From a phage, in sequence record PV805632.1: a DNA stretch of 64,000 nt; one strand, 5' to 3'. A program made the translations under genes and the position numbers. How positions within the stretch are numbered: position 1 is the stretch's first letter; every line of letters begins with the position of its first letter. Shown here in pieces: positions 3,471 through 45,880 of this stretch. The notes under the pieces are model-generated. The model was not told where the DNA came from and did no database searches. It saw only the letters and a program-made list of their open reading frames with translations.

Positions 3471-3781
3471 ATAATATTGTAGTAGTACATGATAGTACAT
3501 TTACTGATGTAGATAAGATGATGCGTAATATTGATTATGTATCTCAGACCAGTAAAGCATTTAACGAAGAGTTCACTATTTACTGTGAACCAGAGTCACC
3601 ACTGGTTCCTGTATTAAAAGAAGCTGGTCTACCGTTCTCTACAAAGAACTTCCCAGAGGAACCAGAGTATATGATTACATTCATATATGACTTACATGAT
3701 GGATCTCCTGCCAGTGAACTAGCTATGAACCAGTGGAGTAGTAAACGTCCTGTATATGCTTTCCAGGTACTCAAACCATGA
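3467..3781 (+). CDS. hypothetical protein (104 aa)
   Basis: ORF track; 4-nt overlap coupling. Confidence 0.5.
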   Translation: MNNIVVVHDSTFTDVDKMMRNIDYVSQTSKAFNEEFTIYCEPESPLVPVLKEAGLPFSTKNFPEEPEYMITFIYDLHDGSPASELAMNQWSSKRPVYAFQVLKP

Positions 3782-4020
3782 TCTATGAAGAATATTATGT
3801 ATTCAAAAAGGGAGATGATTTTATAGCTATGTCCAATGATTACATGGATTGGCATACAACTCCTGTATTAAAGGAAGCATTTTCCGTACCTAACCTGGAA
3901 GAGGTTAATAAAGTAATGAACGGAGTAATGCTAACAAGAGGTATGGCTTACAAAATAGACGCATTAGAAGGAGCTTCTGTATGCAAAGTAACTACATCCA
4001 TTGAGGTACTTAAACCATGA
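3778..4020 (+). CDS. hypothetical protein (80 aa)
   Basis: ORF track; 4-nt overlap coupling. Confidence 0.5.
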   Translation: MIYEEYYVFKKGDDFIAMSNDYMDWHTTPVLKEAFSVPNLEEVNKVMNGVMLTRGMAYKIDALEGASVCKVTTSIEVLKP

Positions 4021-4397
4021 AAACTATCTCATTAGGTGATAACACCAATGCTCTGATAGGTATATCTGCACATCCAATTACTATTGTTAATAAGCATCAC
4101 GGTAAATCCGGTGAGTATATTGGACGTGGTTCACCATTAGGCAATCCATTCATCATTGGTAAACATGGAACCAGAGAGCAAGTAATTGCTAAGTATAAGG
4201 TCTGGCTACAAGAACAGATTGATAAAGGTAATCCAGTTGTACTGGATGAACTTAATCGTCTTGGTAATAAAGCCATTGACGAGAAAGGGCTGGCCTTACA
4301 GTGCTTCTGTTATCCGAAGCCATGTCATGGTGAGGTTATTAAAGAGAAGCTCGTTCGGGCTATGTATAACTATTTTGTAGAAAATCCAAAAGGGTAA
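4017..4397 (+). CDS. hypothetical protein (126 aa)
   Basis: ORF track; 4-nt overlap coupling. Confidence 0.5.
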   Translation: MKTISLGDNTNALIGISAHPITIVNKHHGKSGEYIGRGSPLGNPFIIGKHGTREQVIAKYKVWLQEQIDKGNPVVLDELNRLGNKAIDEKGLALQCFCYPKPCHGEVIKEKLVRAMYNYFVENPKG

Positions 4398-4400
4398 CTA

Positions 4401-4751
4401 ATGAAAGAAATCTTCGTATTCACTACCAATGTACTTGGGCAGCATACCAATGCTGCTGCCAAGTTAGCTTATAAGAAGCACGGTGCACGTTGGGGTATGG
4501 CTTACGGTCATTATGGTAATAGCTTTGCCATTCCAGTAAGGGATGGCAATGGTAACCGAATTAAAGAGGGTGCTATCTATGGCTTCGTTGAAGGCTTTAT
4601 TTCCTATGCATCTACTAATCCACAGTGGGATTTCAAAGTAATGGGAGATGACTTTCTGGACCCATACCTGTTCAATAATGTTACTGGCAATGTACTGTTA
4701 CCTGAAGCATGGCGTAAACACTTAGGTGATGCTTACAACTACTGGTCATAA
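4401..4751 (+). CDS. hypothetical protein (116 aa)
   Basis: ORF track. Confidence 0.5.
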   Translation: MKEIFVFTTNVLGQHTNAAAKLAYKKHGARWGMAYGHYGNSFAIPVRDGNGNRIKEGAIYGFVEGFISYASTNPQWDFKVMGDDFLDPYLFNNVTGNVLLPEAWRKHLGDAYNYWS

Positions 4752-4755
4752 GAAG

Positions 4756-4775
4756 GGTGCTCCGCACCTTGTGGT
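4756..4775 (+). promoter_or_regulatory. N4-type virion-RNAP early promoter variant: GGTGC-TCC-GCACC + TTGTGG
   Basis: same hairpin geometry and TCC loop as 96-115 and 775-794, stem differs by compensatory changes; in the 48-bp gap upstream of the RNAP II genes. Confidence 0.5.
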
Positions 4776-4799
4776 AATTAACTAATTGGAGAATATGCG

Positions 4800-5615
4800 A
4801 TGTACTCATCTATCGAACATCAGAAGCAACTCGAAGTACTATTCAATAAAAATCAGCTCCTGCCAAGGATGCGAAAAGAGTTCGAGGACTCCAAAGAAAT
4901 TGACTTTAAGGCATTCGCTGCCTATTTAGAAATTGATTATAAGCTGCTCATTGATGCAATGGTGCAGATTGCCCTACATAAACGTGCTGACATCCAGACT
5001 ATGATTGGCTCCCTCATGAGCCACTCAGATGATGCTCAGTACATCGCTGACTGTCTGTATAAGATGGCAGAGAATGACTGTTTCAACTATGACCCTACTA
5101 TCGACAAATTCGGTGTTATCTATGAGATTAGTGAAGATGTTCAGATGGAACTGGAAGCATTCCAGTATCCATTACCTATCGTAAGTGCTCCTAATCCTGT
5201 CAGAACTAACAGGGATACTGGTTATTACCAGACTAAAGGAAGCATCATCCTCAAGAAGAACCATCATGAGATGGATGTCTGCCTTGACCACATCAACCGT
5301 ATGAACAATCAACGTCTCTGTGTTAACTGGGACGTTGCTAACTATGTAAAAGACTCTCGTCCTAACATGGATAAACCCAAAGAGGGTGAAACCCGTCAGG
5401 ACTATGAGAAACGAGTTAAAGCCTTTGAGAAGTACAGTCGTACTGCTAAGGAAGTAATGGAGTTAGTGACTCAGGAAGGTAATAACTTCTCACTAGCACA
5501 TAAGTACGATAAGAGAGGGAGAACCTATGCCTGTGGTTACCACATTAACTATGCGGGAACCTCTTATAACAAAGCAGTCATAGAGTTCGCAGATAAAGAG
5601 CTTGTGGAGGACTAA
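4800..5615 (+). CDS. phage RNA polymerase II, small subunit (N4 gp15-like), 271 aa
   Basis: size and position match the N4 two-subunit T7-like RNAP II (about 269 + 404 aa); partner gene downstream carries the catalytic motifs. Confidence 0.6.
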   Translation: MYSSIEHQKQLEVLFNKNQLLPRMRKEFEDSKEIDFKAFAAYLEIDYKLLIDAMVQIALHKRADIQTMIGSLMSHSDDAQYIADCLYKMAENDCFNYDPTIDKFGVIYEISEDVQMELEAFQYPLPIVSAPNPVRTNRDTGYYQTKGSIILKKNHHEMDVCLDHINRMNNQRLCVNWDVANYVKDSRPNMDKPKEGETRQDYEKRVKAFEKYSRTAKEVMELVTQEGNNFSLAHKYDKRGRTYACGYHINYAGTSYNKAVIEFADKELVED

Positions 5616-6229
5616 TGAAAATGTGCAAAGACTGTGGAGAAGTTAAAGACCTCTCCCAGTTTGTACCTAAAGCATCCTGCACAGACGGCTACGAAGTACG
5701 CTGCCGTAGTTGCAGGGTACTCAAATACAATAAAGCTGATCCAGTTAAGATGTTTAAAAAGACATATATCTCTCAGGTGAACCACTCTGTAACGAGAGGT
5801 CATCCACCACCAGCTTATAGTCTGGAAGAGTTATATGACTGGCTGGATAACCAGCCAAACATTCATGAACTATGGGATGCTTACGTCACCAACAACTATG
5901 CTAAGGACTTAAAACCATCAATCGACCGCATAGATGACCTTAAGCCGTATACTCTTGATAACATTCAGTTAATGACGTGGAAAGAGAATAGGAACAAAGG
6001 TGCCAAGAGCAAAAAAGAAGGTGTTATTGGGAAGCATAAACCAGTGATTGCCTACCACTTGGATGGCTCAATCTATAAAGAATTTGTTAGTACCATTGAA
6101 GCTGCTAGACATGTGTCAGGCAGAGCATGGGGAATCACCACGGTAGCTGATGGCATACCAGTAAAGGATGGAAGGGGTAAGCTCTACAATCCTAAAACAT
6201 ACAAAGGCTACATCTGGGCCTGGAAATAA
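5615..6229 (+). CDS. HNH homing endonuclease with C-terminal IENR1/NUMOD-like DNA-binding motif (204 aa)
   Basis: N-terminal Cys cluster CKDCG...CRSC; HNH-like core IDRIDDLKPYTLDNIQLMTWKENRNKG; C-terminal KPV...F.S..EAARH..G.....GYIW motif typical of intron-encoded nuclease repeats. Confidence 0.6.
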   Translation: MKMCKDCGEVKDLSQFVPKASCTDGYEVRCRSCRVLKYNKADPVKMFKKTYISQVNHSVTRGHPPPAYSLEELYDWLDNQPNIHELWDAYVTNNYAKDLKPSIDRIDDLKPYTLDNIQLMTWKENRNKGAKSKKEGVIGKHKPVIAYHLDGSIYKEFVSTIEAARHVSGRAWGITTVADGIPVKDGRGKLYNPKTYKGYIWAWK

Positions 6230-6270
6230 TCCATTAAGCAGGGCTTACGCCCAAGAAGCGGAGAAATATC

Positions 6271-7488
6271 ATGCAATTACTTACTGCTCGCGAATATTTG
6301 AAAGTAGACATCGCTAATTCTTATGGTCTGGATAAGAAGACATGGGATGAACGTATTAGCTGGTTCGATGAGAACGAAGCTAACCTGCTTAATCTGGTAG
6401 ATGAAGCTGAAGAATCTGCACTGTTCTATGCAGGTGTAAACGCATGGAAAGATATGAAAGCTGGTAAGCCTATCGGTTATGCCGTAGCTCTGGATGCTAC
6501 ATCATCTGGTTTGCAGTTACTGGCTTGCCTGACTGGTGACCGTTCTGCTGCTGAACTGTGTAACGTAGTTAACTACATGGGAGAGAATGGTAAGCCATTA
6601 CGTCGTGATGCTTATACAGTTATCTATCACAAGATGCTGGACATCCTTGGTGAAGCATCCCGTATTAAACGTAGTGATACTAAGCAGGCAGTTATGACTG
6701 CATTCTATGGTTCAGAAGCTAAGCCTAAAGAAGTATTCGGTGAAGGTATCCGTCTCAAAACTTTTGAGAATGTAATGGAAACAGTTGCTAGTGGACCTTG
6801 GGCACTGAACAAGTTCTTACTGCAATGTGGTAACCCGGATGCTAACCGTTACGTATGGGTACTGCCTGACAACTTCCATGCTGTCATTAAGGTCATGGTT
6901 CCGGAAGTACAGACTGTTAACTTCTTAGGTAAGCCTTTCGACATCACCCGTATGGTTCAGGGTACTGAAGAGAAGACTCGTATGCTCTCTGCTAACATCA
7001 CCCACTCTATTGATGGGATGGTGGTACGTGAGATGCTGCGTCGCTGTAACTTCAACATGAACCAGGTGAACTATATTAAGTCCCTCTGTGAAGGAACCAG
7101 TGAGTATATGCTGGGTACTAGCGAGAATTACGATATGGTTAGTCAACTGTGGCATAACTATGAGAAATCAGGATTCCTGTCTACCCGTATCTTTGATTAT
7201 CTGGATTCTGACTCAATTAAACTGGTTGATACAGATGTAATCATGGCTATGCTTAATACCATGCCTAAGAAACCATTCCCTGTAATGACTGTACACGACT
7301 GCTTCCGTTGTCACCCTAACTATGGCAATGACTTGCGTCGTCAATACAATCAGATTCTGTCTGACATTGCTAAGAGTGATCTACTGGGCTTCATCCTGTC
7401 TCAGGTACTGGGGCAAGAGTTCTCTGCTGGTAAGCTGGATGACAGCCTCTGGCAGGACATTCTTGAAACAGACTATGCATTAAGTTAA
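6271..7488 (+). CDS. phage RNA polymerase II, catalytic subunit (N4 gp16-like, T7-like RNAP), 405 aa
   Basis: T7-RNAP-like motif A (ALDATSSGLQ), motif B (RSDTKQAVMTAFYG) and motif C (TVHDCF). Confidence 0.7.
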   Translation: MQLLTAREYLKVDIANSYGLDKKTWDERISWFDENEANLLNLVDEAEESALFYAGVNAWKDMKAGKPIGYAVALDATSSGLQLLACLTGDRSAAELCNVVNYMGENGKPLRRDAYTVIYHKMLDILGEASRIKRSDTKQAVMTAFYGSEAKPKEVFGEGIRLKTFENVMETVASGPWALNKFLLQCGNPDANRYVWVLPDNFHAVIKVMVPEVQTVNFLGKPFDITRMVQGTEEKTRMLSANITHSIDGMVVREMLRRCNFNMNQVNYIKSLCEGTSEYMLGTSENYDMVSQLWHNYEKSGFLSTRIFDYLDSDSIKLVDTDVIMAMLNTMPKKPFPVMTVHDCFRCHPNYGNDLRRQYNQILSDIAKSDLLGFILSQVLGQEFSAGKLDDSLWQDILETDYALS

Positions 7489-7496
7489 TAAACTGG

Positions 7497-7530
7497 CCTC
7501 ATACCTTCGGGTATGGGGCTTTTATTTTTT
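7497..7530 (+). terminator. intrinsic terminator (CCTCATACC-TTCG-GGTATGGGG + TTTTATTTTTT)
   Basis: hairpin plus T-run read directly. Confidence 0.7.
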
Positions 7531-7547
7531 GCTTGGAGGTAGTCAAC

Positions 7548-7730
7548 ATGACAGACATCTATGATGTTATTACTAAAACCGTACTGATAGTTTTATCTGC
7601 TATTGTGATATTCACTATAGCCAATGTTCATAAATCCAAGTTTTCCTATTGCTACTATGGAGCATATTCTGCCGGATGTTTTGTATTAGCCGGTTGGATA
7701 GCTTACTGGATTTACTGCATCATCAACTAG
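7548..7730 (+). CDS. small membrane protein (60 aa)
   Basis: ORF track 7533..7730; ATG 7548 preferred, GGAGG 8 nt upstream; one hydrophobic helix. Confidence 0.4.
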   Translation: MTDIYDVITKTVLIVLSAIVIFTIANVHKSKFSYCYYGAYSAGCFVLAGWIAYWIYCIIN

Positions 7731-7757
7731 CCACCCTCATGGGTGGCTTTCTTTTTA
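7730..7757 (+). terminator. intrinsic terminator GCCACCC-TCAT-GGGTGGC + TTTCTTTTTAT
   Basis: hairpin plus T-run; overlaps stop codon. Confidence 0.7.
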
Positions 7758-7803
7758 TCAGCCTTCATAATGATTAGGCATATTTACTCAAGAGGATACA
7801 TGC

Positions 7804-8637
7804 ATGCCAACCCTAAAGATTGCGTTTAATAAAACTACCAACGTTGCTACCGTGCTTGATTCAGATGGCAATGTTCCAGATGGTTCTGTGGAAGTAGGTA
7901 CTTTTGTACATCCAGATGCCACTTACCCAGATAGCTTAGTTATCTATCACGGTGTACGCGACCTGTTGTATAAATGCTCAGCTGAAGACCCTGCTGAAGA
8001 AGGTTTCTGGCCTAACAACATCGTGGATATGCAGTCGATCACTATCGACATGCAAGCTACTCCACGACTGACTATTGCTACCAAACTGCCTCGTGTAATC
8101 TCCACCATCGAAGGTGAAGATATTAACTGGCATGTTGATGTAGCAGGCGGTAAAGCACCATTTACTTATGAGTGGCAATATAAAGCTAACACTGCTGATG
8201 CAGTATTCGCTGATATTGATTCTGATGACAACGAATCTGCTGCTACTGCAACATTGACCCTTAATGGCGTAACCGCTGCTTCTGCTGGTACTTATAAAGT
8301 GATTGTTACTGATGCTAATGGAACCACGGTGGAAGATACCTCACTGCTGGCTGTAGGCTACCACGAAGCAAGCTCACTGGTAGCTACCCCAGATTCACTG
8401 GAACTGTCTGTTGCTGACGATGCCACTGATGGTAAGACTGTAACCATTACTGCTATGCCTGTTGGAGCGTCTGTTGGTACTTTATCTATCAAGACTGCTC
8501 CGGATTCTGCCCGTGCTACAGCTACCATTGCTGGTAACGTACTGACAGTTAAACCTGTGGCAGAAGGTGAAGATACTTCTGTAGTAGTTACCAATGGTAA
8601 TGTCGATGTAACCATCGCTGTTACTGTTGCAGAGTAA
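7804..8637 (+). CDS. Ig-like (BIG2-type) domain protein, possible capsid decoration protein (N4 gp17-like), 277 aa
   Basis: Thr/Val/Ala-rich beta-strand repeats typical of Ig-like domains; sits after the RNAP II genes as gp17 does in N4 (recalled). Confidence 0.5.
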   Translation: MPTLKIAFNKTTNVATVLDSDGNVPDGSVEVGTFVHPDATYPDSLVIYHGVRDLLYKCSAEDPAEEGFWPNNIVDMQSITIDMQATPRLTIATKLPRVISTIEGEDINWHVDVAGGKAPFTYEWQYKANTADAVFADIDSDDNESAATATLTLNGVTAASAGTYKVIVTDANGTTVEDTSLLAVGYHEASSLVATPDSLELSVADDATDGKTVTITAMPVGASVGTLSIKTAPDSARATATIAGNVLTVKPVAEGEDTSVVVTNGNVDVTIAVTVAE

Positions 8638-8687: not shown

Positions 8688-8717
8688 GACCTCCCTATTG
8701 AAGGGAGGTCTTTTTTT
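8688..8717 (+). terminator. intrinsic terminator GACCTCCC-loop-GGGAGGTC + TTTTTTT
   Basis: 8-bp stem and T7 run. Confidence 0.7.
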
Positions 8718-34553: not shown

Positions 34554-37500
34554 TCAATTTACAAGGTTTATCCAAGGGTTCAGGTTGTGAGCACGAAGAC
34601 CCTGACCAAAGCCCCATGAGTAATCCAGACTACCCTTAGCAGCAATACTAAAGATGTTGTCCTGAATAGGTAAGCCAACATTACCAAACATGGTAGGAGT
34701 TGGAGCCAACATCGCCATTGCTGCATGTACTGGGTTGTTACGAATCATGGACACTGCAACCTTAGCTGAACGAATCTTAAAGTTGTAGAACCACATCAAA
34801 CCAACGCTTTCCATATACCCACGGAAGCGACCAGGCAGACGGTCATAGTTAATGAACTCTTCGGTTACACGTCCCAGTGCTTCTTCACGAGTCTTACCTT
34901 TACGCTGGGTCAATTCATCATAGATGATTGCTTTAGCGATAAAGTCAGAGTACTCAACCGTCTTCTGGATACCCTGGAACAGAGCAGTATCCTTAGTGAT
35001 AAGTGCATAACGACCAGCAGCACGTACAGACTTAGGTAACTTATCCGCCAGCTTTTCCATGTATTCGTGAAGTTTACCTTCAGTAATCAGGATGTCATCA
35101 CGACCAATACCAGCATCTGCAATTGAAGAGAACTCACCAGCTTCTATCAGAGGCCAGATACTCATACGCTTATGGCTATCAGTAATGGACTGAATCTCAG
35201 CCTTAAGTTTACGAATCTGGTTCGGGTTAGTAGCTGCACGTAATTCTGCTTCTGCATCTACCTGACGTAAACGAGATTTAAGGTATTGGTTAATCTCAGC
35301 AGTCTTCCGTGGAATGCTCTTAGCAATGCTCTTAACCGGTACACCACGAGCAACCATCTGGTAAAGGTTAGCCAAAAAGTTAACAACAGGTACGACTACT
35401 GACTTAACTACAATCAGAGTCTTAGCATCTTTAACTAAATTTTGAACCAGGTTCTCACCACCCATTAAGTACTTATAGGCACGGTTACCGGCTAAACCCA
35501 GAATAGCTTTTTTAAAAGTATTAAGCGTTTCCGGGGACCAACGAGAATTACCAGACCAAGCATCACCAATCGAAGCTGCACGATAGCCAAGTGCATCATT
35601 CAGCATGTCACGACGTACCCACAGTTCACCCTCACCAAACAGTTTTTCTGCTTTCCGTCGAGTTTCACTGTTCATCAGCTTAAGAGCATCAGCAGTTACT
35701 GGGTCCAGTTTAGAACCAAAAAGGTTCACGTACTGGGACTTATTAGCAGCAGACATCTTAATGTCTTCCTTGTACATGCTATACAGGTTCTCAATCAGCA
35801 TATCGTTGAAACGCTGAGCCTTAGCTTCTTCCACCTGACGACCACGCCATACACCAATTGCACGGGCAAGATGATTTTCACCTTCAATATGCTTCAGCAT
35901 ATTAGGGTTAATTGATTCCTCATAAGCAACCACATCACCTTTAGCATTATATACGGGCAATAGTGGTTCATTACCACGTTCACCACGAGCTAGTGCTTTA
36001 GCGATACGGTCTACAGAAGGCTTGTCAGTAATACGACCAGCTACCATGGAACCCATCGTAAAGCCTGTACCGAGGTCTACACCACCAGCAGTATTACGAA
36101 CGTTCTGTAGAATACCTTGTGAGAACGGAGCCTGTGCCTGTACTGGGGCAAAGTAGTAGCTACGTGCCAGACCTCGGTTAGCAGAGCTACCTTGATAAGT
36201 ACTCAGACGTACATAGGACTTCTCTATCAAATCACCAAACTGGCTATCTTCAGCAACAACCAGACTAACACCCTGTTTAGTCTCACTAGGGATATACCCT
36301 TTGTACTGGTTCAGGGTTGCACGCATATTAGATTTGGCTTTAGCCATTTCATCTTTACGCTGCCCAACCAGGTAAGAAGTAGCAAAGTCCATTCCCTCAA
36401 CTTCTGTCTGAGCCAGTGAAGATAACATCTCACGGTCGGACTTGTTCATTGCTTCCAGTGCATACAGGGTAATAAGTTTATCCAGTTGAGCTACATCTAC
36501 AATAGAGCGAGTAGTCTTACGTTCACCTAACATACGAGAGATTGCAGTAGCATTCCGCAGCAAGTTTTTACCGACTGTGCCATTAATCATGTACTGAGCC
36601 AGTTGCTTAGATTTACGGTTAATCAGAGGCCAGTTACGACCAGCTTGTTTCTGCAAATCTGCTTCCAGCTTATTCACTTCACGGTCAACAATCTTCTGGT
36701 CAGATAGCAGGTCACGGATTTCAGCCAGAGACATGGTGTCACGCAGGACAGCTAAGTCAGTTTTACCCATACCAGTGTACATTGCTTTCCACTCATCCTT
36801 AGTCAGCTTACGGCTGAACTTAGATGCGATAGTGGTAGGCAGGTGTTCACGGAACTGCTGACGGTCAGCCTGCACCTGTGCACGAACTGCTTTAATCAAA
36901 TCGTATACAGAAGCATTACTCTTAGTACGACCGGTTAAGTCATTAACCAGGTCATGGAAAGGTTGCCATACTTTACCCTGGTTCATTGCAACCATAACGC
37001 CTTCAGCTACGTTTGCACCATTCTTCTCTGTAGCAATAGCAGCCATTAGTTGTGCAGCATGAGCAGCACCCTTAACCAATGGATTTTTGGTATTGGCTGC
37101 AACTTCACGAGCACTTTCTAAAACACGGGTAGACAGTACATCAATAGAGTCCACCAAATACTGGTTAGCACGGTCAATAGCATTACCACTAGGAGTAGCA
37201 ACGGAATCATAGAATGACTGTGCATTAAGGCTAGTCTGCATGATTGTTTGAGCCAGTGCATCCATACCTTCCTGTACGTTGGTAGCTTTAGTGTCACCTG
37301 CTACACGAGCATTCAGGCTTGCCATTGCAGCAGTACCAATGTTAGTCAGCATTGCATCGACGGTATTCCCAGATTTCTTATCTGCTTTCATAACAGGAAT
37401 GTTAGCCAGTACATTACGTACCTCTTCACTTACCATTGCCAGACCAACAAAGGTAGGCAGTATTGAAGAACGACCCTGCGCATCAAACTCAATATTGTTA

Positions 37501-40500
37501 GCACCCATGATGGTATCGAACTTCTGCTGTGCATAGTAACGGTCAGCAGGGTTAGTACTATCTGGGTCAGTCATGAATGATTCAACAGTCAGGTTCTTAG
37601 TAACGTGTGCATAGTATTCCTGTGCACGAGAAAGAGCAGCCGGACTAATAGCAGCTTCAGTAGCGAGTGCAGCAACAATGTTAGTAAAGAGACGCTGCTC
37701 CTGCATATTCATAGTGAAGCCATGAGCCTGAACATCACGGGTTACTTTAGTTGCGTGCTTTTTCGCATCAGAGAACTTACCTTCACGGATTACTTGCTGT
37801 ACTGGTTCTGAACCAATGTAGTTAGTAATCAGCTTATCAAATGTCTGTCCTAACTCTTCCAGACGGGTATTGTCACCATATGCTTTGTTATGGAACAAGG
37901 TAGTATCTTTGGCTACAGCAGCCGTAGGAGCCTGTCCACGCATAACTACTGAAGAGTTAAACAGTAAGCCAGAGAACATATCATCTGCATTAGCAGGTGC
38001 TTTCTTGCGACCAAATACCAGACGTTTGATTGCTTCATATACTGACTGAACCATGGCTTTCAGTGCAGTGGTCTTCTTCTGCTTACTAATTAATTCACGG
38101 TTAGTTAAGCCCCAAGCCATGTACTCATTCAGTGCAGCAGCTTTAGCCATTGCTGGTTCAATAAAGCCGTTAGACAAGTGACCATTAATGGTATTAAGTG
38201 CATCAGCATATGCTTCACGTACTGCCGGAGATTCATCCATAACATCCAGATTACGGAACTGGTTCATCAAGTCTTCAATATTCTGGACTGCTTCATTAGG
38301 AGTACCCTCATAGTGAGCCAGTACAGATTCAAAAGTAGAAGCATGTACTAATTCATGAACCAGAGTCTCTAGGGAAGGGGTAACTAAGTAGATGGTTTTA
38401 TCATCAAAGTTAGTCCAGCCATACGCATTACCAGCTTCGGCAGCTTCAATATCTTCCGGTGCTGGACGAGTAATGTTCTTCTCAATAGCATAGGCATCCA
38501 GTTGAGCAGGAGTACCGTAAACAACTTTGTAGTCTTTAGCAGCAAGGGATTTCTGTATCTCTTTCAATACTGCTTGCTGTTCTGGAGACATCTCTTTAGC
38601 CAGCTTGGTAATAGCAGTATTAGACAATAGACGTACACCAGACTTAAGTACACGACCAACTTGTTCCATTGCTGGCACTTCTTTAACAGGTGCTTCTTTA
38701 GTAGGTACTTCTTTCACTGGATCTGCTTTAGCAGCACGTACTGCATCACGACGCTTATTTAATTCAGCATCAAACAGTTCGTTCAGCTTAGCTACTTGCT
38801 GGTCTACAGTCAGTCCCTCAAGAGAAATTTTACCGTTGTTCACATAAGGAGCACCTACAGCAGCCATCTGGTCAACAGTGGTCTGTACCTGGTTCATTAC
38901 TTTGTGGCGAATATCCACACTTAAAGCAATGTTACGCAGGTTACGCTCAATAAGGTTAACACCTGAATTCTTAATCATATCAATCTTATACTGCCTGTCT
39001 CCCTCAACGCGACTGATATGAGAAAGCTGTTCAAAATCTAAAGCGGAACGGGCAATGTCATCAATTGTCTTATCTGACAACTTATCAAAGTCTACATTCT
39101 TCAAGAACTCAGAGAAGGATTCATATACAGCCTTGATAGGATTCCCCTGCCAGGAAGTGTATACAGCCTCGTTTGCTTTACGACTTGCATCAGTGATGTC
39201 ACTAATACCAATGTTCATACCATCAAAGATTTTCAGGGTATTCTTCGGAGCACCTTTCATAGTAGAAAGGGTCTGCATCATCATGCCATCACCAGTACCG
39301 ATGGTCATAAATGGAATACCTGCAACACCTGCTTGTGAAGGAGCATAGATGCTCATTGGCACACGCATACGGTCATCTAAGTTGGTAGCCAGTACTTGGT
39401 TAGCAACGTCAGTACTCTCACTGCCAGCAAGGTAGAAAGTCTGTGAGCCAGTCTCAATCATTGGAGCCAATGGAGATAATGATTCCTGGATTTCATTCAG
39501 TTCTTTCTGTGTTAAGAAATCACCCTTCTTCCAGGTTGGGTCTTTTTCTTTTTCTGCTAGCTTAGCCTGTACTGCTTGCTGGAACATATCCTGCAATACC
39601 AGAGACTGAATCTGAGTAGCCTTCTGCAAGTTCTCAGTAGAGTACATCAGACCTTCACCAACAGTATTACGGATACCGGTACGCATTGGCTCAACGAACA
39701 AATGGAGCATGTTCTCTTGTAAGTTCTTCAGAGCATTACCGGATACGGTAAATTTCTGAGGGTCTAACTTACCAGTCAGAGCACCATCTACTTCCTTAAT
39801 AAATAACTTACCTTTGCGCTTAGCTGGAATTTTACCAGTCAGTGCTTCCATAGAAGTAAGGAAGGTATCCAGCATAGCCTGAGCATCTGCCTCAGACGCA
39901 GCCTCTTTACCAAACATTGCCATAGCCGGGGAAATGCTGGGGTCAGCAGCACGTGCTTGCAGAACGTCGCTGAAACGTTCGTAGATGGTGTCAGTAATTG
40001 CACCGACTATATTACCAGCAATACCACGTGCACCAGCACCATAGATGGTAATGGTCAGGGGGTTTTTAGCGATGCCACGTTTCAGGTCCAGAGTACCATC
40101 TTCATTCAGGTTAAAGTCTTTAATGAACAGGTCCATTAACTTCTGGAGATGATTTATCTGGTTTATAACTGGAACGTTGTTACGGTAAGTAGTACGTAAC
40201 GCATTCAGTGCTTGTTGCAGACCATTGGTAGATGCTTCATACAAGTCAACATTATCGTCGATAGAACAATGTTCGTTCATCGTTTTACCAGCACGACCGA
40301 AGAACAAACCACCTTTGGCAGTATTCTTAATCCAGTCTGGGGTGAACTTACCACCAGTCATTAATACCATTGCGTTGATTGGGCCGTTGGTTACACCATC
40401 AGCTTCAACGTACAGAGGGGTAGTAAAATTAGCACGGTCATCACTGTTCAGGTAACGGGCATATTCCATCAGGGCCATGAGAGCTACGAAGGATTTGTTA

Positions 40501-43500
40501 TCACCCAGAGAGGTTTTCAGAATATCTACTGCATCAGTAGGTAAATAACCAGACTTATCAAACTCAACCATCATATCAACAGCAGGTTTCAAATTACCTT
40601 CCAGAGCTTTGGTCAGATTTTCAGACATAGCTTCACGGGACATTTTATGTACCTTGATGCCCAATGCCTGAGCCAGACCTAACTGGAAGTCAGAGAATGC
40701 TTGGCTGTTTTCATTACTCAAGTCGATAGTGGAGAAGGTTGGCAGAATTGCTTCACGAACCAGTTTACTGGATTGTGGGTTATTCTTACCAAGCATCTGC
40801 ATACGACCTACACGGGTCATGTTGTAACCGTAGTGAATGGGGGTATCCAAACCATTCTCTTGTTCTTTTAGCTGATTAATTAAACCGAACAAAGAATCAT
40901 ATGCCATAGATACCGATAAGTTCTTACCTTCCAGAGATTTGGCAGTGTTTTCATTCAGCAAATCAGGATTAAGAGAACCAGCACCCATCAGTTCCAGAAT
41001 GCCGTCTCGGCCTAATGCTTCATAGAAGTTAACCATCGGCATGTGTACACGGAACTCCGTAGCCTGTTCAGCTTTCAAAGCAGCTTTCTGTTCCGGGGTA
41101 TTCCTAACAGCAGGGTTACGTAACTGAGTTTGAGCCACGGAAGGAATGTCATCACCGAAGTACGTTTTCTCTTCCGGATTTACCAGCACAGCTTCCTCAA
41201 TTGCTGTAGGGAAATTATTAATAGGGTCTTTATCTGCCAACTTATTAATAGTGTACAAACCAATAGTCTTATTAGAATCCGGGTCAATCTCAGACACATC
41301 CAGCATAGTCTCAGTAACTGCACCCATCTCGATGAGGGAAGACAGAATCTCTGTAGCCATTGCCACTGGAATACCCTTGGTATAACCCAGTGGTGCATTA
41401 GGGTTACGGTTTAAACCCCAGTAGGATTCAATCTTTTGAGCCAGTGAGTTAGTAGCCTCAATCAGAGTCTGGGCATTCTCGAACTCAGCCAGAATACTTT
41501 CTGGTAACAGAGATGCATCTACACCAGTAATAGCAGCCACGTCTTTCATATCTTTAATGGCAGCATTCTGTGTAGCAGTCAGTCGCCATTGCAGACCAGC
41601 AAGTACAGCAGTCTCTAACAACTGGTCATTGAACTTAAAGGTATCTCCATCTTTCTCTACGATGTTAAGTAACTTACCACCTACCCAACGGTTAGCCTCA
41701 GTACCTTCTGCAAAACGTTTACCAACATTTTTATTAGCAAGGAACTTAGCCAGTCGTTCAGACAGAGTAGCCTTCAGAGTTTCCCCAAAGTCCATCAAGT
41801 CTTGATAGCGTTCTAACACATCACCTGCGAGAACGTTATTTTCTTTTTGAGTGAACGCTTCAAAGCGAGCAGCAGAAGACAGTGCTTGCTTGATATCAGC
41901 CAAAGGAGATTCAGAACCAATGGTACGGGACTTAGGTTCTTCCGGTAGGGTAAATGCCTTCAGGAACTGGTTCGGTGTCTTCTCATTGTTATAGACAGGG
42001 AACACTGCTTCCATTCCAGAAAGGGGTTTGCCACCCACTGTATAATCTGCTTTCAGCTGAGCCAGTGATACTTCATCCTTCTCCACGTTGTTAGTGTTAC
42101 GACCAGTGGTATCTACACCAACCAGAATCTGTGCATTATTGGCTTCAACGAAAGACTGAACAGTATTGAATTGTTCAGCAGTCAGCTTCTGATTATCAAA
42201 CAGTTGCAGAGATACAAATGGTTGTTCACTGCCTTTATAGAAGGTAGAGCGAATAGCACCTGTATCCAGGGACATATCACGATACCCATCATGCCCAAAT
42301 ACGTCGGACAGGCTGATATGGTCGCCATTAGAACCAACCACAGTACCATCAGCAAACAGCCATGGACTCTCCCTACGATCACCATACTTATTAAGAGTTT
42401 CCTGTGAAATAGTATTTTCTTTCACATAGGCATCTCTTTCAGATTCAGTAGGTTGCTCGATGGTATCCTCATTAGTGGGGGTAGCATCATCTACAACCGG
42501 GCTAGTCTTTTCAGACTTAGGTACTTTCTCTTCCTGTACAGGTGTAACTTCTGGCTGGGAGAATGTATTACGTACATAGTTCATAAAATCATTACGTGCT
42601 TGAGAAGGAGAAGACCATACTTCCCGTGTGCTACGTAAACTAAAGATTCGACCTTCAGGAGTCATTACGTAAGGTACATTTGTTTTACCGTACTTAAATG
42701 AAGTGAGTACATCTGACTTACCAGTAACAGTGCTTTCCCCTGGAATGACAATAGTCTTACCACCAGTAGAGGGAACAGCACGAACACCCTCAATATCCTT
42801 ACCAAGAGAAATATACTCTTTACCGTTGTAATCAAAGTACTGACCTATCTGCATATAGGTAGCTTGTTGCTTACCAGTAAACTCAGCAGTTTTCATCTCC
42901 GGGCCGTTAGGTACAGACGTACTTTCAGACTTAGGCTTAGATACTTTCTCTGGTTCTGACTTAGACTCTACAGTGTTAGGAGCAGTTTTATTGTTTACCA
43001 CTGGTTTAGCTTTAGACTGTACAGTAGTAGTGTCCTCTTGCACTGGTGCAGGGGTTTCATCAACCTGATTCACTGGTTCATTAGTCTGTTGGGACTGAGT
43101 GGCATTAAGACCACCTTGACGGAACTCTTTAACTACCTGGGCAGCTGGCTTGTTCAGACGTGAATCCAACGAGGTAACTTTCACATGAGAAACATTAAGC
43201 TCCGGGTAAGCCGTAGCAAGTGCGTTAGCAATATCAGCTACGGTCTTAGCTTCCAGCGCTACTTGCTGGGCAAACTTAACAGACTTGGTATCATAAGGAT
43301 TAACACCGAGGCCAGTACGACTACGTACCCATTCACGCGTAGGCGTGAGAGCCTGATAATGAACAGACTTATTCTTATCCGCATTCCCCGAAATCAGATG
43401 CTCATTCAACGCTCCGACCTTATTCTGCATGTGCTGGGCGAACTTCATAAAATCGCTCAGATAAGCGGAGGCCAAATCGAAGTTACCAGAGTTATACGCA

Positions 43501-45815
43501 GAACGAATGCGTTTCGCATGTTGCAACGCAGAGTACTGTCCTTCATTAGAACGAGACTCGTCGGTTTTAATCTGTTTACTAACGATGTCTTGACGACGTA
43601 AGCCCAGTTCTTCTGCTTTAGCATCATACTCACGTGCACCCTGTAACAGAGCAGCAGCTGATTGCAGGGCAGCACGTTGACGATTATTCAGTGTAATCTT
43701 ACCCTCACTCGCATGCTTCAGAACCATGTTCACTGAATCTGCATCCAGTACTTCTGGAGACACATCAGCAGCCATAGCAATGTTGTTTGCTTGGGCTTGG
43801 TTAGCTTCTTCAGTAGCTTTCAGCTTACCTGCTTCAGCCTGTTCCTGAATCATAGAATGGATGGCACGGAATGCACGAAGTACTTTAGGGGTATTCTGTA
43901 TGTTAGCCATCAGACCGGAGAACTGGTCTACGATTGCAGCAGCAGGGGAACCTTGTTCCAGATTAGCCAGTGCACCTGGGTCACGGTTAATGAAGCTATC
44001 CATAGACATGATGTTGTCATACATCTGGATTGCAGCTTCCATTTGAACGTTAGGGTCTTCAGCAGTATTAACCAGGTCAGCCATCTTCTGAATAGCTTCC
44101 ACACGGTTAGTGGAACCAGAAACAGCTTCGCGGATTACTGGGTTAGCTTGCTCCAATTCTACTGGGTCAAACTTCATTGCCTGAGTTAAATCAGCAGCAT
44201 ACTGGGTAGCAGCAGCCTTCTCTTCTGGAGTGATATCCATTGCATCTACTGCTTCCTGTACAGTTGCTTGTGCTTGCTCTGCCTGAGCAGCAGCTTCCTG
44301 TGCAGCAGCATTAACCGTAGCATCAGCTACAGGGGATGCTTGTTCATTACGCTTAGCAACTTCTTCACCACGTTGAACCAGGATGTTAGTAAGAGGAGAT
44401 GCAGCTTTTGCTAATGTTTTACCAACCAGAGAAGCACCAGCCAGAGTAGTACGAAGAGCAGGGCCAGCAGCAGCACCGGCAGCTTTAACAGTTGCACCAG
44501 GAGCTTGAGCAACCCCAGCACTACCGAAGCCATAAAGTGCACCAAGACCAGCTTGCTCACCAACCCCTTTGAGAGTATCTCGGGATGCATCAACATTTTC
44601 CTTGATTGCACGGTTCTGGGCATACTGACCAAAGCCTGACTGAATACCTTCTTCAACTGTTTCACGTAGCATATTGGAACCAGCACCAGCCAGTGAACCT
44701 ACCTTAAGTGGGTTAAGTTCAAAGCGAGATACCAGTGGACCGGTAGCAGCAGCAACTGGAGCAGTTAAGCCAGCAGCAAGGATACCTGTTTCAGATGCAG
44801 TCTGACGACGTGCTTCATCAGGAGATAAACCATCGGCAATATGTTGTTGGTAAACAGGAGACTTACTTGCCAGTTCTGGATGGGACATCTTCATGATTTC
44901 AGAAGCAGTCTGTTGGTATGCACCACCAGCTTCCATAGCACCGATTGCAATAGCAGGTGCAGCAACACGACCAGTAGACAATGCAACCTGTGCAGGACGT
45001 GAACCCAACCCAGCAGCTAAGGTAATACCCTTAACAGCTTTATCACCACCTACCATTACTTTACCGAGTGCAGATACACCACGGATAAGTGGACCACCGG
45101 TAAAGAGGGAACCAACACCTTCACTCAGTCCATCTGAGGCAGCCATACCATTATCAAGTGTGTTAGCAACAGAGTCGAAAGCGTCACGACCAATACGAGA
45201 CAGGGAGGCAACCAAATCGCTCTCCCCGTTTTTGATATCCTGTTCATAGAGTTTCTGGTTCTTTTGGGCAGAAATCTGGTTCTGATTCTGAACAACTTTA
45301 CGGGTAGCATTCAGTGCATCAGACTGTAGATTGTGTACACCTTCATTCAACCAATCCATCCCGGAAGCAATGGTTGCCCCGGCATTATCATTGACCAGAC
45401 CTGCGCCAAGAGCAGCAATGCCCCCAAGGGTATTAGCAACACCAAGACCAACACCAGAAAGAGTATCGCCAAATGCTTCTGCGTTAGTACGCTGTTTAGA
45501 TAAGTCCTGACGTACAGCATCCGCAGCATTAGCTCGGCTATTAAGAATCTGTAAACCTTGCTCATTACCGTACTTATTAATGATTTCTAATGGGGAGGCT
45601 TGAGTGAAATCTGCCTGAAGTGAACCTGGTTCGAATGCACCGATTCCAAGATTACCTACTCGTCCAGTCTGGAGATTGTAAGCATTCTCTGGGGTTAATT
45701 GGAAAGGGTTTTGCCCTTGTGCAGCTTGCTTCTGAGAGGTTGCAGTAGAGACATCGACTTGCTTAGCATTAGTGATGCTGTCTGCGAAACCTGCCAGACG
45801 GTCAAATGTTGACAT
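34554..45815 (-). CDS. giant virion-encapsidated RNA polymerase (N4 vRNAP-like), about 3,750 aa
   Basis: single uninterrupted ORF of about 11.3 kb, the hallmark of N4-like phages; start set to ATG 45815 (MSTFDRL) with AGGAAA RBS; no catalytic motif verified by eye. Confidence 0.8.
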   Translation of the reverse strand: MSTFDRLAGFADSITNAKQVDVSTATSQKQAAQGQNPFQLTPENAYNLQTGRVGNLGIGAFEPGSLQADFTQASPLEIINKYGNEQGLQILNSRANAADAVRQDLSKQRTNAEAFGDTLSGVGLGVANTLGGIAALGAGLVNDNAGATIASGMDWLNEGVHNLQSDALNATRKVVQNQNQISAQKNQKLYEQDIKNGESDLVASLSRIGRDAFDSVANTLDNGMAASDGLSEGVGSLFTGGPLIRGVSALGKVMVGGDKAVKGITLAAGLGSRPAQVALSTGRVAAPAIAIGAMEAGGAYQQTASEIMKMSHPELASKSPVYQQHIADGLSPDEARRQTASETGILAAGLTAPVAAATGPLVSRFELNPLKVGSLAGAGSNMLRETVEEGIQSGFGQYAQNRAIKENVDASRDTLKGVGEQAGLGALYGFGSAGVAQAPGATVKAAGAAAGPALRTTLAGASLVGKTLAKAASPLTNILVQRGEEVAKRNEQASPVADATVNAAAQEAAAQAEQAQATVQEAVDAMDITPEEKAAATQYAADLTQAMKFDPVELEQANPVIREAVSGSTNRVEAIQKMADLVNTAEDPNVQMEAAIQMYDNIMSMDSFINRDPGALANLEQGSPAAAIVDQFSGLMANIQNTPKVLRAFRAIHSMIQEQAEAGKLKATEEANQAQANNIAMAADVSPEVLDADSVNMVLKHASEGKITLNNRQRAALQSAAALLQGAREYDAKAEELGLRRQDIVSKQIKTDESRSNEGQYSALQHAKRIRSAYNSGNFDLASAYLSDFMKFAQHMQNKVGALNEHLISGNADKNKSVHYQALTPTREWVRSRTGLGVNPYDTKSVKFAQQVALEAKTVADIANALATAYPELNVSHVKVTSLDSRLNKPAAQVVKEFRQGGLNATQSQQTNEPVNQVDETPAPVQEDTTTVQSKAKPVVNNKTAPNTVESKSEPEKVSKPKSESTSVPNGPEMKTAEFTGKQQATYMQIGQYFDYNGKEYISLGKDIEGVRAVPSTGGKTIVIPGESTVTGKSDVLTSFKYGKTNVPYVMTPEGRIFSLRSTREVWSSPSQARNDFMNYVRNTFSQPEVTPVQEEKVPKSEKTSPVVDDATPTNEDTIEQPTESERDAYVKENTISQETLNKYGDRRESPWLFADGTVVGSNGDHISLSDVFGHDGYRDMSLDTGAIRSTFYKGSEQPFVSLQLFDNQKLTAEQFNTVQSFVEANNAQILVGVDTTGRNTNNVEKDEVSLAQLKADYTVGGKPLSGMEAVFPVYNNEKTPNQFLKAFTLPEEPKSRTIGSESPLADIKQALSSAARFEAFTQKENNVLAGDVLERYQDLMDFGETLKATLSERLAKFLANKNVGKRFAEGTEANRWVGGKLLNIVEKDGDTFKFNDQLLETAVLAGLQWRLTATQNAAIKDMKDVAAITGVDASLLPESILAEFENAQTLIEATNSLAQKIESYWGLNRNPNAPLGYTKGIPVAMATEILSSLIEMGAVTETMLDVSEIDPDSNKTIGLYTINKLADKDPINNFPTAIEEAVLVNPEEKTYFGDDIPSVAQTQLRNPAVRNTPEQKAALKAEQATEFRVHMPMVNFYEALGRDGILELMGAGSLNPDLLNENTAKSLEGKNLSVSMAYDSLFGLINQLKEQENGLDTPIHYGYNMTRVGRMQMLGKNNPQSSKLVREAILPTFSTIDLSNENSQAFSDFQLGLAQALGIKVHKMSREAMSENLTKALEGNLKPAVDMMVEFDKSGYLPTDAVDILKTSLGDNKSFVALMALMEYARYLNSDDRANFTTPLYVEADGVTNGPINAMVLMTGGKFTPDWIKNTAKGGLFFGRAGKTMNEHCSIDDNVDLYEASTNGLQQALNALRTTYRNNVPVINQINHLQKLMDLFIKDFNLNEDGTLDLKRGIAKNPLTITIYGAGARGIAGNIVGAITDTIYERFSDVLQARAADPSISPAMAMFGKEAASEADAQAMLDTFLTSMEALTGKIPAKRKGKLFIKEVDGALTGKLDPQKFTVSGNALKNLQENMLHLFVEPMRTGIRNTVGEGLMYSTENLQKATQIQSLVLQDMFQQAVQAKLAEKEKDPTWKKGDFLTQKELNEIQESLSPLAPMIETGSQTFYLAGSESTDVANQVLATNLDDRMRVPMSIYAPSQAGVAGIPFMTIGTGDGMMMQTLSTMKGAPKNTLKIFDGMNIGISDITDASRKANEAVYTSWQGNPIKAVYESFSEFLKNVDFDKLSDKTIDDIARSALDFEQLSHISRVEGDRQYKIDMIKNSGVNLIERNLRNIALSVDIRHKVMNQVQTTVDQMAAVGAPYVNNGKISLEGLTVDQQVAKLNELFDAELNKRRDAVRAAKADPVKEVPTKEAPVKEVPAMEQVGRVLKSGVRLLSNTAITKLAKEMSPEQQAVLKEIQKSLAAKDYKVVYGTPAQLDAYAIEKNITRPAPEDIEAAEAGNAYGWTNFDDKTIYLVTPSLETLVHELVHASTFESVLAHYEGTPNEAVQNIEDLMNQFRNLDVMDESPAVREAYADALNTINGHLSNGFIEPAMAKAAALNEYMAWGLTNRELISKQKKTTALKAMVQSVYEAIKRLVFGRKKAPANADDMFSGLLFNSSVVMRGQAPTAAVAKDTTLFHNKAYGDNTRLEELGQTFDKLITNYIGSEPVQQVIREGKFSDAKKHATKVTRDVQAHGFTMNMQEQRLFTNIVAALATEAAISPAALSRAQEYYAHVTKNLTVESFMTDPDSTNPADRYYAQQKFDTIMGANNIEFDAQGRSSILPTFVGLAMVSEEVRNVLANIPVMKADKKSGNTVDAMLTNIGTAAMASLNARVAGDTKATNVQEGMDALAQTIMQTSLNAQSFYDSVATPSGNAIDRANQYLVDSIDVLSTRVLESAREVAANTKNPLVKGAAHAAQLMAAIATEKNGANVAEGVMVAMNQGKVWQPFHDLVNDLTGRTKSNASVYDLIKAVRAQVQADRQQFREHLPTTIASKFSRKLTKDEWKAMYTGMGKTDLAVLRDTMSLAEIRDLLSDQKIVDREVNKLEADLQKQAGRNWPLINRKSKQLAQYMINGTVGKNLLRNATAISRMLGERKTTRSIVDVAQLDKLITLYALEAMNKSDREMLSSLAQTEVEGMDFATSYLVGQRKDEMAKAKSNMRATLNQYKGYIPSETKQGVSLVVAEDSQFGDLIEKSYVRLSTYQGSSANRGLARSYYFAPVQAQAPFSQGILQNVRNTAGGVDLGTGFTMGSMVAGRITDKPSVDRIAKALARGERGNEPLLPVYNAKGDVVAYEESINPNMLKHIEGENHLARAIGVWRGRQVEEAKAQRFNDMLIENLYSMYKEDIKMSAANKSQYVNLFGSKLDPVTADALKLMNSETRRKAEKLFGEGELWVRRDMLNDALGYRAASIGDAWSGNSRWSPETLNTFKKAILGLAGNRAYKYLMGGENLVQNLVKDAKTLIVVKSVVVPVVNFLANLYQMVARGVPVKSIAKSIPRKTAEINQYLKSRLRQVDAEAELRAATNPNQIRKLKAEIQSITDSHKRMSIWPLIEAGEFSSIADAGIGRDDILITEGKLHEYMEKLADKLPKSVRAAGRYALITKDTALFQGIQKTVEYSDFIAKAIIYDELTQRKGKTREEALGRVTEEFINYDRLPGRFRGYMESVGLMWFYNFKIRSAKVAVSMIRNNPVHAAMAMLAPTPTMFGNVGLPIQDNIFSIAAKGSLDYSWGFGQGLRAHNLNPWINLVN

Positions 45816-45880
45816 AGCATGTTTCCTGTTCAAACTTATATCGTATATAGGTAACCTACTCTACAGTAAGCCAGTGTAAG

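Follow-up and report, generated by a model that had tools for sequence, protein, structure and literature searches.

The inverted repeat GGTGC-TCC-GCACC at 4756-4768 on the + strand of record PV805632.1 is very probably early promoter P3 in an N4-like phage of the G7C type. At this promoter, the injected virion RNA polymerase (vRNAP) would start to transcribe the genes for RNAPII, the middle-gene polymerase. The stretch of DNA analysed here (the window, 64,000 nucleotides) covers the left 64 kb of the genome of an N4-like coliphage that resembles G7C (Gamaleyavirus). A megablast search with window 3500-8000 matched N4-like coliphages of the genus Gamaleyavirus, the top match being vB_EcoP_G7C with 96% identity over 85% of the query, and the gene order gp1, gp2, small ORFs, gp14, gp15, gp16, gp17 is common to the left ends of the G7C and N4 records. 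Since window position 96 is equivalent to position 89 in G7C and 90 in N4, the beginning of the window is approximately the left end of the genome. The hairpin site is found on the + strand before gp15, 4.76 kb into a genome of ~72 kb.

The hairpin is located in the 48-nt gap (4752-4799) between the stop codon of the gp14 homologue (4401-4751, + strand, phrog_2072, with the TAA at 4749-4751) and the ATG of the gp15 homologue at 4800, and begins 5 nt past the gp14 stop codon. It comprises GGTGC from 4756, TCC from 4761 and GCACC at 4764-4768, forming five perfect pairs and a 3-nt loop, with the sequence TTGTGGT (4769-4775) directly 3' of it. Pairing can be extended to 4754-4770 by one A-T pair plus a G.T mismatch. 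A GGAG Shine-Dalgarno sequence, read from the sequence, is present at 4788-4791 (+ strand), 8 nt before the gp15 ATG. The sequence-only reading had placed this hairpin in the gap before the RNAPII genes, in agreement with the sequence and the ORF bounds, and had called it a variant, a fair description given the stem triplet GGT/ACC (vs GTT/AAC and GAC/GTC in the other two GC-TCC-GC hairpins of the window) and the G rather than A at position -2. Folded as single-stranded DNA, either strand gives the 5-bp hairpin at about -4.3 kcal/mol, and on the template strand the 5-bp hairpin is the minimum-energy structure, of modest energy (-4.3 kcal/mol, z -2.1). We infer that the working form is the template (-) strand hairpin 5'-GGTGC GGA GCACC-3'.

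The early promoters of N4 are conserved from -17 to +1 and contain a GC-rich heptamer centred at -11 between inverted repeats (PMC4496689; PMC13492108). The N4 hairpins at 90-102 (GTTGC TTC GCAAC), 557-573 (AAGAAGC TCC GCTTCTT, just before gp2) and 4546-4562 (AAGCTGC TCC GCAGCTT, 41 nt before the RNAP1/gp15 CDS at 4603) fit the published early promoters P1, P2 and P3. The oligonucleotide of P2 in the cryo-EM work (…CCAAAAGAAGCGGAGCTTC…) corresponds to the template strand of N4 557-573 (PMC13492108), and N4 P3 was mapped as a true start site in vivo as well as in vitro (PMC4496689).

Judged by position and sequence, the window site is the orthologue of N4 early promoter P3. The two sites share their placement in the gp14-gp15 gap about 6.5% from the left end, their orientation, the GC-TCC-GC heptamer (GC-GGA-GC on the template), the 3-nt loop, the -11G, -10G, -8G and +1C of the template, and the GG start, as well as the downstream genes gp15 and gp16 and the position of a terminator past gp16. 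They differ in that the N4 stem has seven pairs (AAGCTGC) and the window stem five perfect pairs (GGTGC) with a G.T mismatch at the sixth position, in the exchange of one stem pair (G-C in the window for C-G in N4), and at -2, which is G in the window and T in N4 P3. In addition, the predicted leader from 4773 to the gp15 ATG is 27 nt, compared with 38 nt in N4, and the window contains an endonuclease ORF between gp15 and gp16 that N4 lacks.

The requirements for promoter function have been described for N4. According to a 2015 review, hairpin extrusion requires a C:G loop-closing pair together with a 5' G and a 3' A in the template loop, while vRNAP recognises -11A/G, -10G, -8G and +1C, of which -8G and -11G are also given in a later paper. 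In mini-vRNAP, R119 reads -11G and W129 stacks on it, and GTP was used to form the initiation complexes of N4 vRNAP (PMC13492108). In the window, with the loop centre C4762 set at -11, the template strand has a 5'-GGA-3' loop with C(-9):G(-13) as its closing pair, and the non-template residues C4762, C4763, C4765 and G4773 correspond to template -11G, -10G, -8G and +1C. Every sequence determinant published for the template strand is found in the window site. The N4 register, with 4762 as -11, places the predicted transcription start (+1 G and +2 G, with C at template +1) at 4773-4774 on the + strand. Among 31 related sites, GCTCCGC is invariant except for one loop base in N4 P1, and the start GG at +1/+2 is invariant in all. 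Loops of the type GC-GNA-GC, containing a sheared G.A pair, form unusually stable DNA mini-hairpins. This stability is in line with the resistance of the template-strand loop reported in the 2015 review.

To examine the occurrence of the hairpin in related phages, gp15 was used to scan viral contigs twice for homologous loci. Of the 17 relatives with a gp15 of at least 54% identity, 16 have a GC-TCC-GC hairpin ahead of this gene, the exception being L029 (gp15 54% identity), where there is no GC-TCC-GC hairpin before gp15. The more distant Schitoviridae of the set (gp15 27-39% identity) also have no GC-TCC-GC hairpin upstream of the gp15 homologue, and the motif is therefore specific to the N4/G7C/KP8-like group. 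The spacing between the hairpin and the gp15 start codon is bimodal, being either 31-38 nt, or about 270-290 nt with a small ORF in between. This small extra ORF between the P3 hairpin and gp15 is found in L005, L007, L011 and L026 (spacing about 270-290 nt).

The P3 stems of the relatives are GGTGC, GCTGC or GCAGC. The triplet GGT/ACC occurs in the window, G7C and three contigs, GCT/AGC in N4, PhAPEC7, IME11, ECBP1 and pSb-1, and GCA/TGC in KP8-like contigs. Among 12 P3 orthologues, all 72 of 72 stem cells are paired and two of the six pairs change on both sides, compared with 7-57% pairing in slid registers. When all 31 P1, P2 and P3 sites are taken together, four of the six pairs covary and 98.6% of cells are paired (10-48% in slid registers). 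Such compensatory changes in the stem indicate that the hairpin has been under selection among the relatives. The orthologous sites amount to a natural mutagenesis series, in which GC-TCC-GC and GG are invariant and the stem covaries freely, in agreement with the biochemical determinants. The number of vRNAP promoters varies from three to four within the group: the G7C-like contigs L005 (1083-1097 and 1339-1353) and L006 (147-161 and 431-445) each contain two hairpin promoters between gp1 and gp2 and four in all, as for KP8.

Another possibility is that the hairpin is conserved but weak or silent, and that expression of the RNAPII genes depends mainly on read-through, either from P2 or from upstream middle promoters. 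We consider this improbable, even though the stem is shorter than that of N4 P3, with a G.T at its sixth position, and the terminator scan detected no + strand terminator-like site between 2642 and 4756. N4 P3 in the equivalent place is a start site mapped in vivo and in vitro, the window site retains all of the known determinants intact, and the compensatory stem changes extend across the relatives. Read-through and initiation at P3 are also not mutually exclusive: with no + strand terminator-like site between 2642 and 4756, upstream read-through could also supply gp15/gp16 mRNA and may coexist with P3 initiation. The strength of P3 in the window could differ from that of N4 P3, given the shorter stem, the sixth-position G.T and a -2 G instead of A or T.

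The hairpin might alternatively serve to end the gp9-gp14 unit upstream of it, as an intrinsic terminator or RNA stem-loop, and not be a promoter. Its location 5 nt past the gp14 stop and the 5-7 bp stem that the RNA could form would be consistent with this role. However, the + strand tail is TTGTGGT, with no T-run, and the terminator scan makes no + strand call at the site. In addition, the RNA fold of 4735-4800 is no stabler than that of shuffled sequences (z +0.45), and the conserved features (the loop sequence, GC closing pairs and a GG located 11 nt downstream) are determinants of vRNAP, not features of terminators. Other parts of the region contain clear terminators, which have long stems and T-runs, and the + strand terminator-like sites at 1289-1308, 2621-2642, 7495-7520, 7729-7748 and 8688-8710 are syntenic with those of N4. 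A terminator function is therefore very unlikely on these grounds. The scan also called a terminator-like site on the - strand (4768-4756), where that strand carries no genes; this call is a by-product of the palindromic sequence.

The assignment as a promoter is further consistent with the distribution of the motif in the window. A search of both strands of the 64 kb gave only three copies of the heptamer GCTCCGC, at 99, 778 and 4759, all on the + strand. Each copy is the core of a perfect hairpin with a 5-bp stem and a 3-nt loop, followed by TT[A/G]TGG, and all three are intergenic. The other two copies correspond to the predicted P1 (GTTGC-TCC-GCAAC followed by TTATGG, 96-108, + strand; N4 P1 at 90-102) and the predicted P2 (GACGC-TCC-GCGTC followed by TTATGG, 775-787, + strand; N4 P2 at 557-573), the latter located just before the gp2 homologue (803-1279). 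In 1000 dinucleotide-preserving shuffles, GC-TCC-GC hairpins with 5-bp stems occur with a mean of 0.039 and a maximum of 1, and none is accompanied by the downstream box.

A covariance model was constructed on 31 sites taken from N4 and ten other relatives, with the window and G7C excluded, and was used to scan the whole window on both strands with filters off. The matches are 771-796 (34.3 bits, containing predicted P2), 92-117 (33.9 bits, containing predicted P1) and 4752-4777 (27.4 bits, E about 1e-6). The last of these, on the + strand, is the predicted P3 as a full early-promoter model match from -21 to +5. The fourth-best match (12.6 bits, E 0.16) is a terminator-like hairpin at 2621-2642 on the - strand, and neither relaxed patterns nor the model with filters off revealed further degenerate vRNAP promoters above 12.6 bits in the window. 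Although 5-bp palindromes with 3-nt loops are common (111 in the window), the notion of a chance palindrome without function is effectively refuted by the shuffles (0.039 of the GC-TCC-GC form expected per window, three seen, always with the downstream box), by the model E-value of about 1e-6, and by the conservation of the position in N4 and 15 other relatives.

The genes downstream of the hairpin encode the two subunits of RNAPII. The small subunit (271 aa, 4800-5615, + strand) is the homologue of N4 gp15/RNAP1, with 64% identity over the full length, and matches phrog_2166 (N4-like RNA polymerase, 1e-114). The large catalytic subunit (405 aa, 6271-7488, + strand; PF00940, phrog_2051) is the homologue of N4 gp16/RNAP2, with 69% identity over the full length. 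Between them lies an endonuclease VII/HNH-like ORF (204 aa, 5615-6229, + strand; phrog_1035, 1.7e-27). The sequence-only reading had described a two-subunit RNAPII operon, which holds for the presence of both gp15 and gp16 homologues (64% and 69% identity) and needs amending for the endonuclease ORF at 5615-6229, which makes this a three-gene unit. A strong intrinsic-terminator-like hairpin with a T-run is present just after gp16 (7495-7520, + strand, identified by the terminator scan; the N4 equivalent is 6680-6705), and the P3 unit most likely ends there. The slot between gp15 and gp16 is empty in N4, and the gene occupying it in G7C (15.1) is only 33% identical to the window endonuclease. 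This low identity, together with the absence in N4, gives the gp15-gp16 gap the appearance of a swappable homing-endonuclease site in the earliest transcription unit.

The cognate polymerase is also encoded in the window. The vRNAP gene (N4 gp50 homologue, 34554-45833, - strand) is a 3759-aa ORF with 66% identity to N4 vRNAP overall and 69% in the mini-vRNAP region. It keeps the equivalents of R119 and W129, and the surrounding motif GKRFA.GTEANRWVGG is conserved (GKRFAEGTEANRWVGG). The claim that the RNAPII genes are under the control of the injected virion RNAP thus gains support from the orthology with N4 P3, the presence of the determinants and a cognate vRNAP retaining R119 and W129, which together make such control probable. 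The accompanying idea of a wired-in polymerase cascade would hold as well, and corresponds to the established programme of N4 and not to a new one.

A sequence of events can be proposed for the P3 site, taken in its early steps from N4. Host gyrase would supercoil the left genome end after injection, leading to extrusion of the inverted repeat. E. coli SSB would then melt the non-template hairpin, while the template hairpin 5'-GGTGC-GGA-GCACC-3' would persist. The injected vRNAP would bind the template hairpin via the -11 loop purine (stacking on W129 and read by R119), -10G and the stem -8G, and the RNA would begin with G at 4773, opposite the template +1 C. The resulting transcript would span gp15, the endonuclease ORF and gp16 up to the terminator at 7495-7520, and would supply both subunits of RNAPII. 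For the window, we infer hairpin extrusion, vRNAP binding, the exact start site and the transcript end. N4 P1-P3 are the only promoters at which initiation by vRNAP has been shown to be rifampicin-resistant, to need no new protein synthesis and to depend on gyrase and SSB.

More tentatively, the G7C-type P3 might be tuned, with its 5-bp stem, G.T and -2 G setting a dose or timing of RNAPII different from that in N4, and the P3 unit might serve as an interchangeable landing slot for homing endonucleases. We regard this combined proposal as possible but doubtful. If it is true, endonucleases in the slot would be expressed from the first minutes by the injected polymerase, favouring homing in co-infection. 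The promoter assignment itself adds little new biology, as the vRNAP-to-RNAPII cascade and P3 were worked out for N4 decades ago and equivalents have been predicted in other N4-like phages.

Several of these equivalents can be compared directly with the window site. One is that of vB_EcoP_G7C, in which an identical hairpin with identical flanks (AAGAAG GGTGC TCC GCACC TTGTGGTAATTAACTAATTGGAGAA) is present at 5221-5233 in the same gp14-gp15 gap. The site is unannotated in the G7C GenBank record, where only terminator stem-loops are marked. G7C has a fourth GC-TCC-GC hairpin at 503-515 (AACGC TCC GCGTT), followed by GTTTCG and not TTRTGG, at a place where the window sequence differs. It has no GG where the start would be expected, and may be a copy that has decayed or does not initiate.

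In the Klebsiella phage KP8, the predicted promoter P4 (AAGCAGCTCCGCTGCTTGTGGG) was placed by the authors before the RNA polymerase subunit B gene. It shares with the window site the core, the TTGTGG start box and the placement relative to an RNAPII subunit gene, and differs in its 7-bp stem (AAGCAGC) and in being one of four predicted promoters in KP8, compared with three in the window; in both phages the promoters are predictions. Hairpin early promoters have also been predicted for the Pseudomonas phages LUZ7, LIT1 and PEV2, and were experimentally mapped for LUZ7. The LUZ7 promoters (determined by ONT-cappable-seq) resemble the window site in having a stem of at least 4 bp, a conserved 3-nt loop, a G start and an injected vRNAP, but differ in sequence, in the distance of the start from the hairpin centre (13-14 nt) and in the number of early start sites (nine).

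Our literature search, which did not extend to the original G7C paper, found no description of these sites for G7C-like phages. Their assignment is of value for annotation, as the promoters are unmarked in G7C-type records. The three sites fix the starts of the early transcription units. For example, the longest ORF of the gp1 homologue (59-475, + strand) has its ATG at 59, upstream of the predicted P1 start (~113). The PHROG match begins at residue 33 and the G7C annotation is equivalent to ~152, suggesting that the true gp1 start is probably near 152-155.

Right after gp1, the window contains a perfect 12-bp palindrome with a TTC loop at 479-505 (AATAGGAGGCTC TTC GAGCCTCCTATT). Its position corresponds to that of the N4 terminator at 493-512, and it has a T-run on the - strand side only. 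The vRNAP of the window, at 3759 aa, is longer than that of N4 (3500 aa) owing to a block of ~265 aa (about ORF residues 972-1236), which is inserted immediately ahead of the polymerase (mini-vRNAP) domain, at a point between residues ~970 and 976 of N4. Residues 1070-1145 within this block resemble N4 residues 908-1004 (35% identity), suggesting a diverged local duplication.
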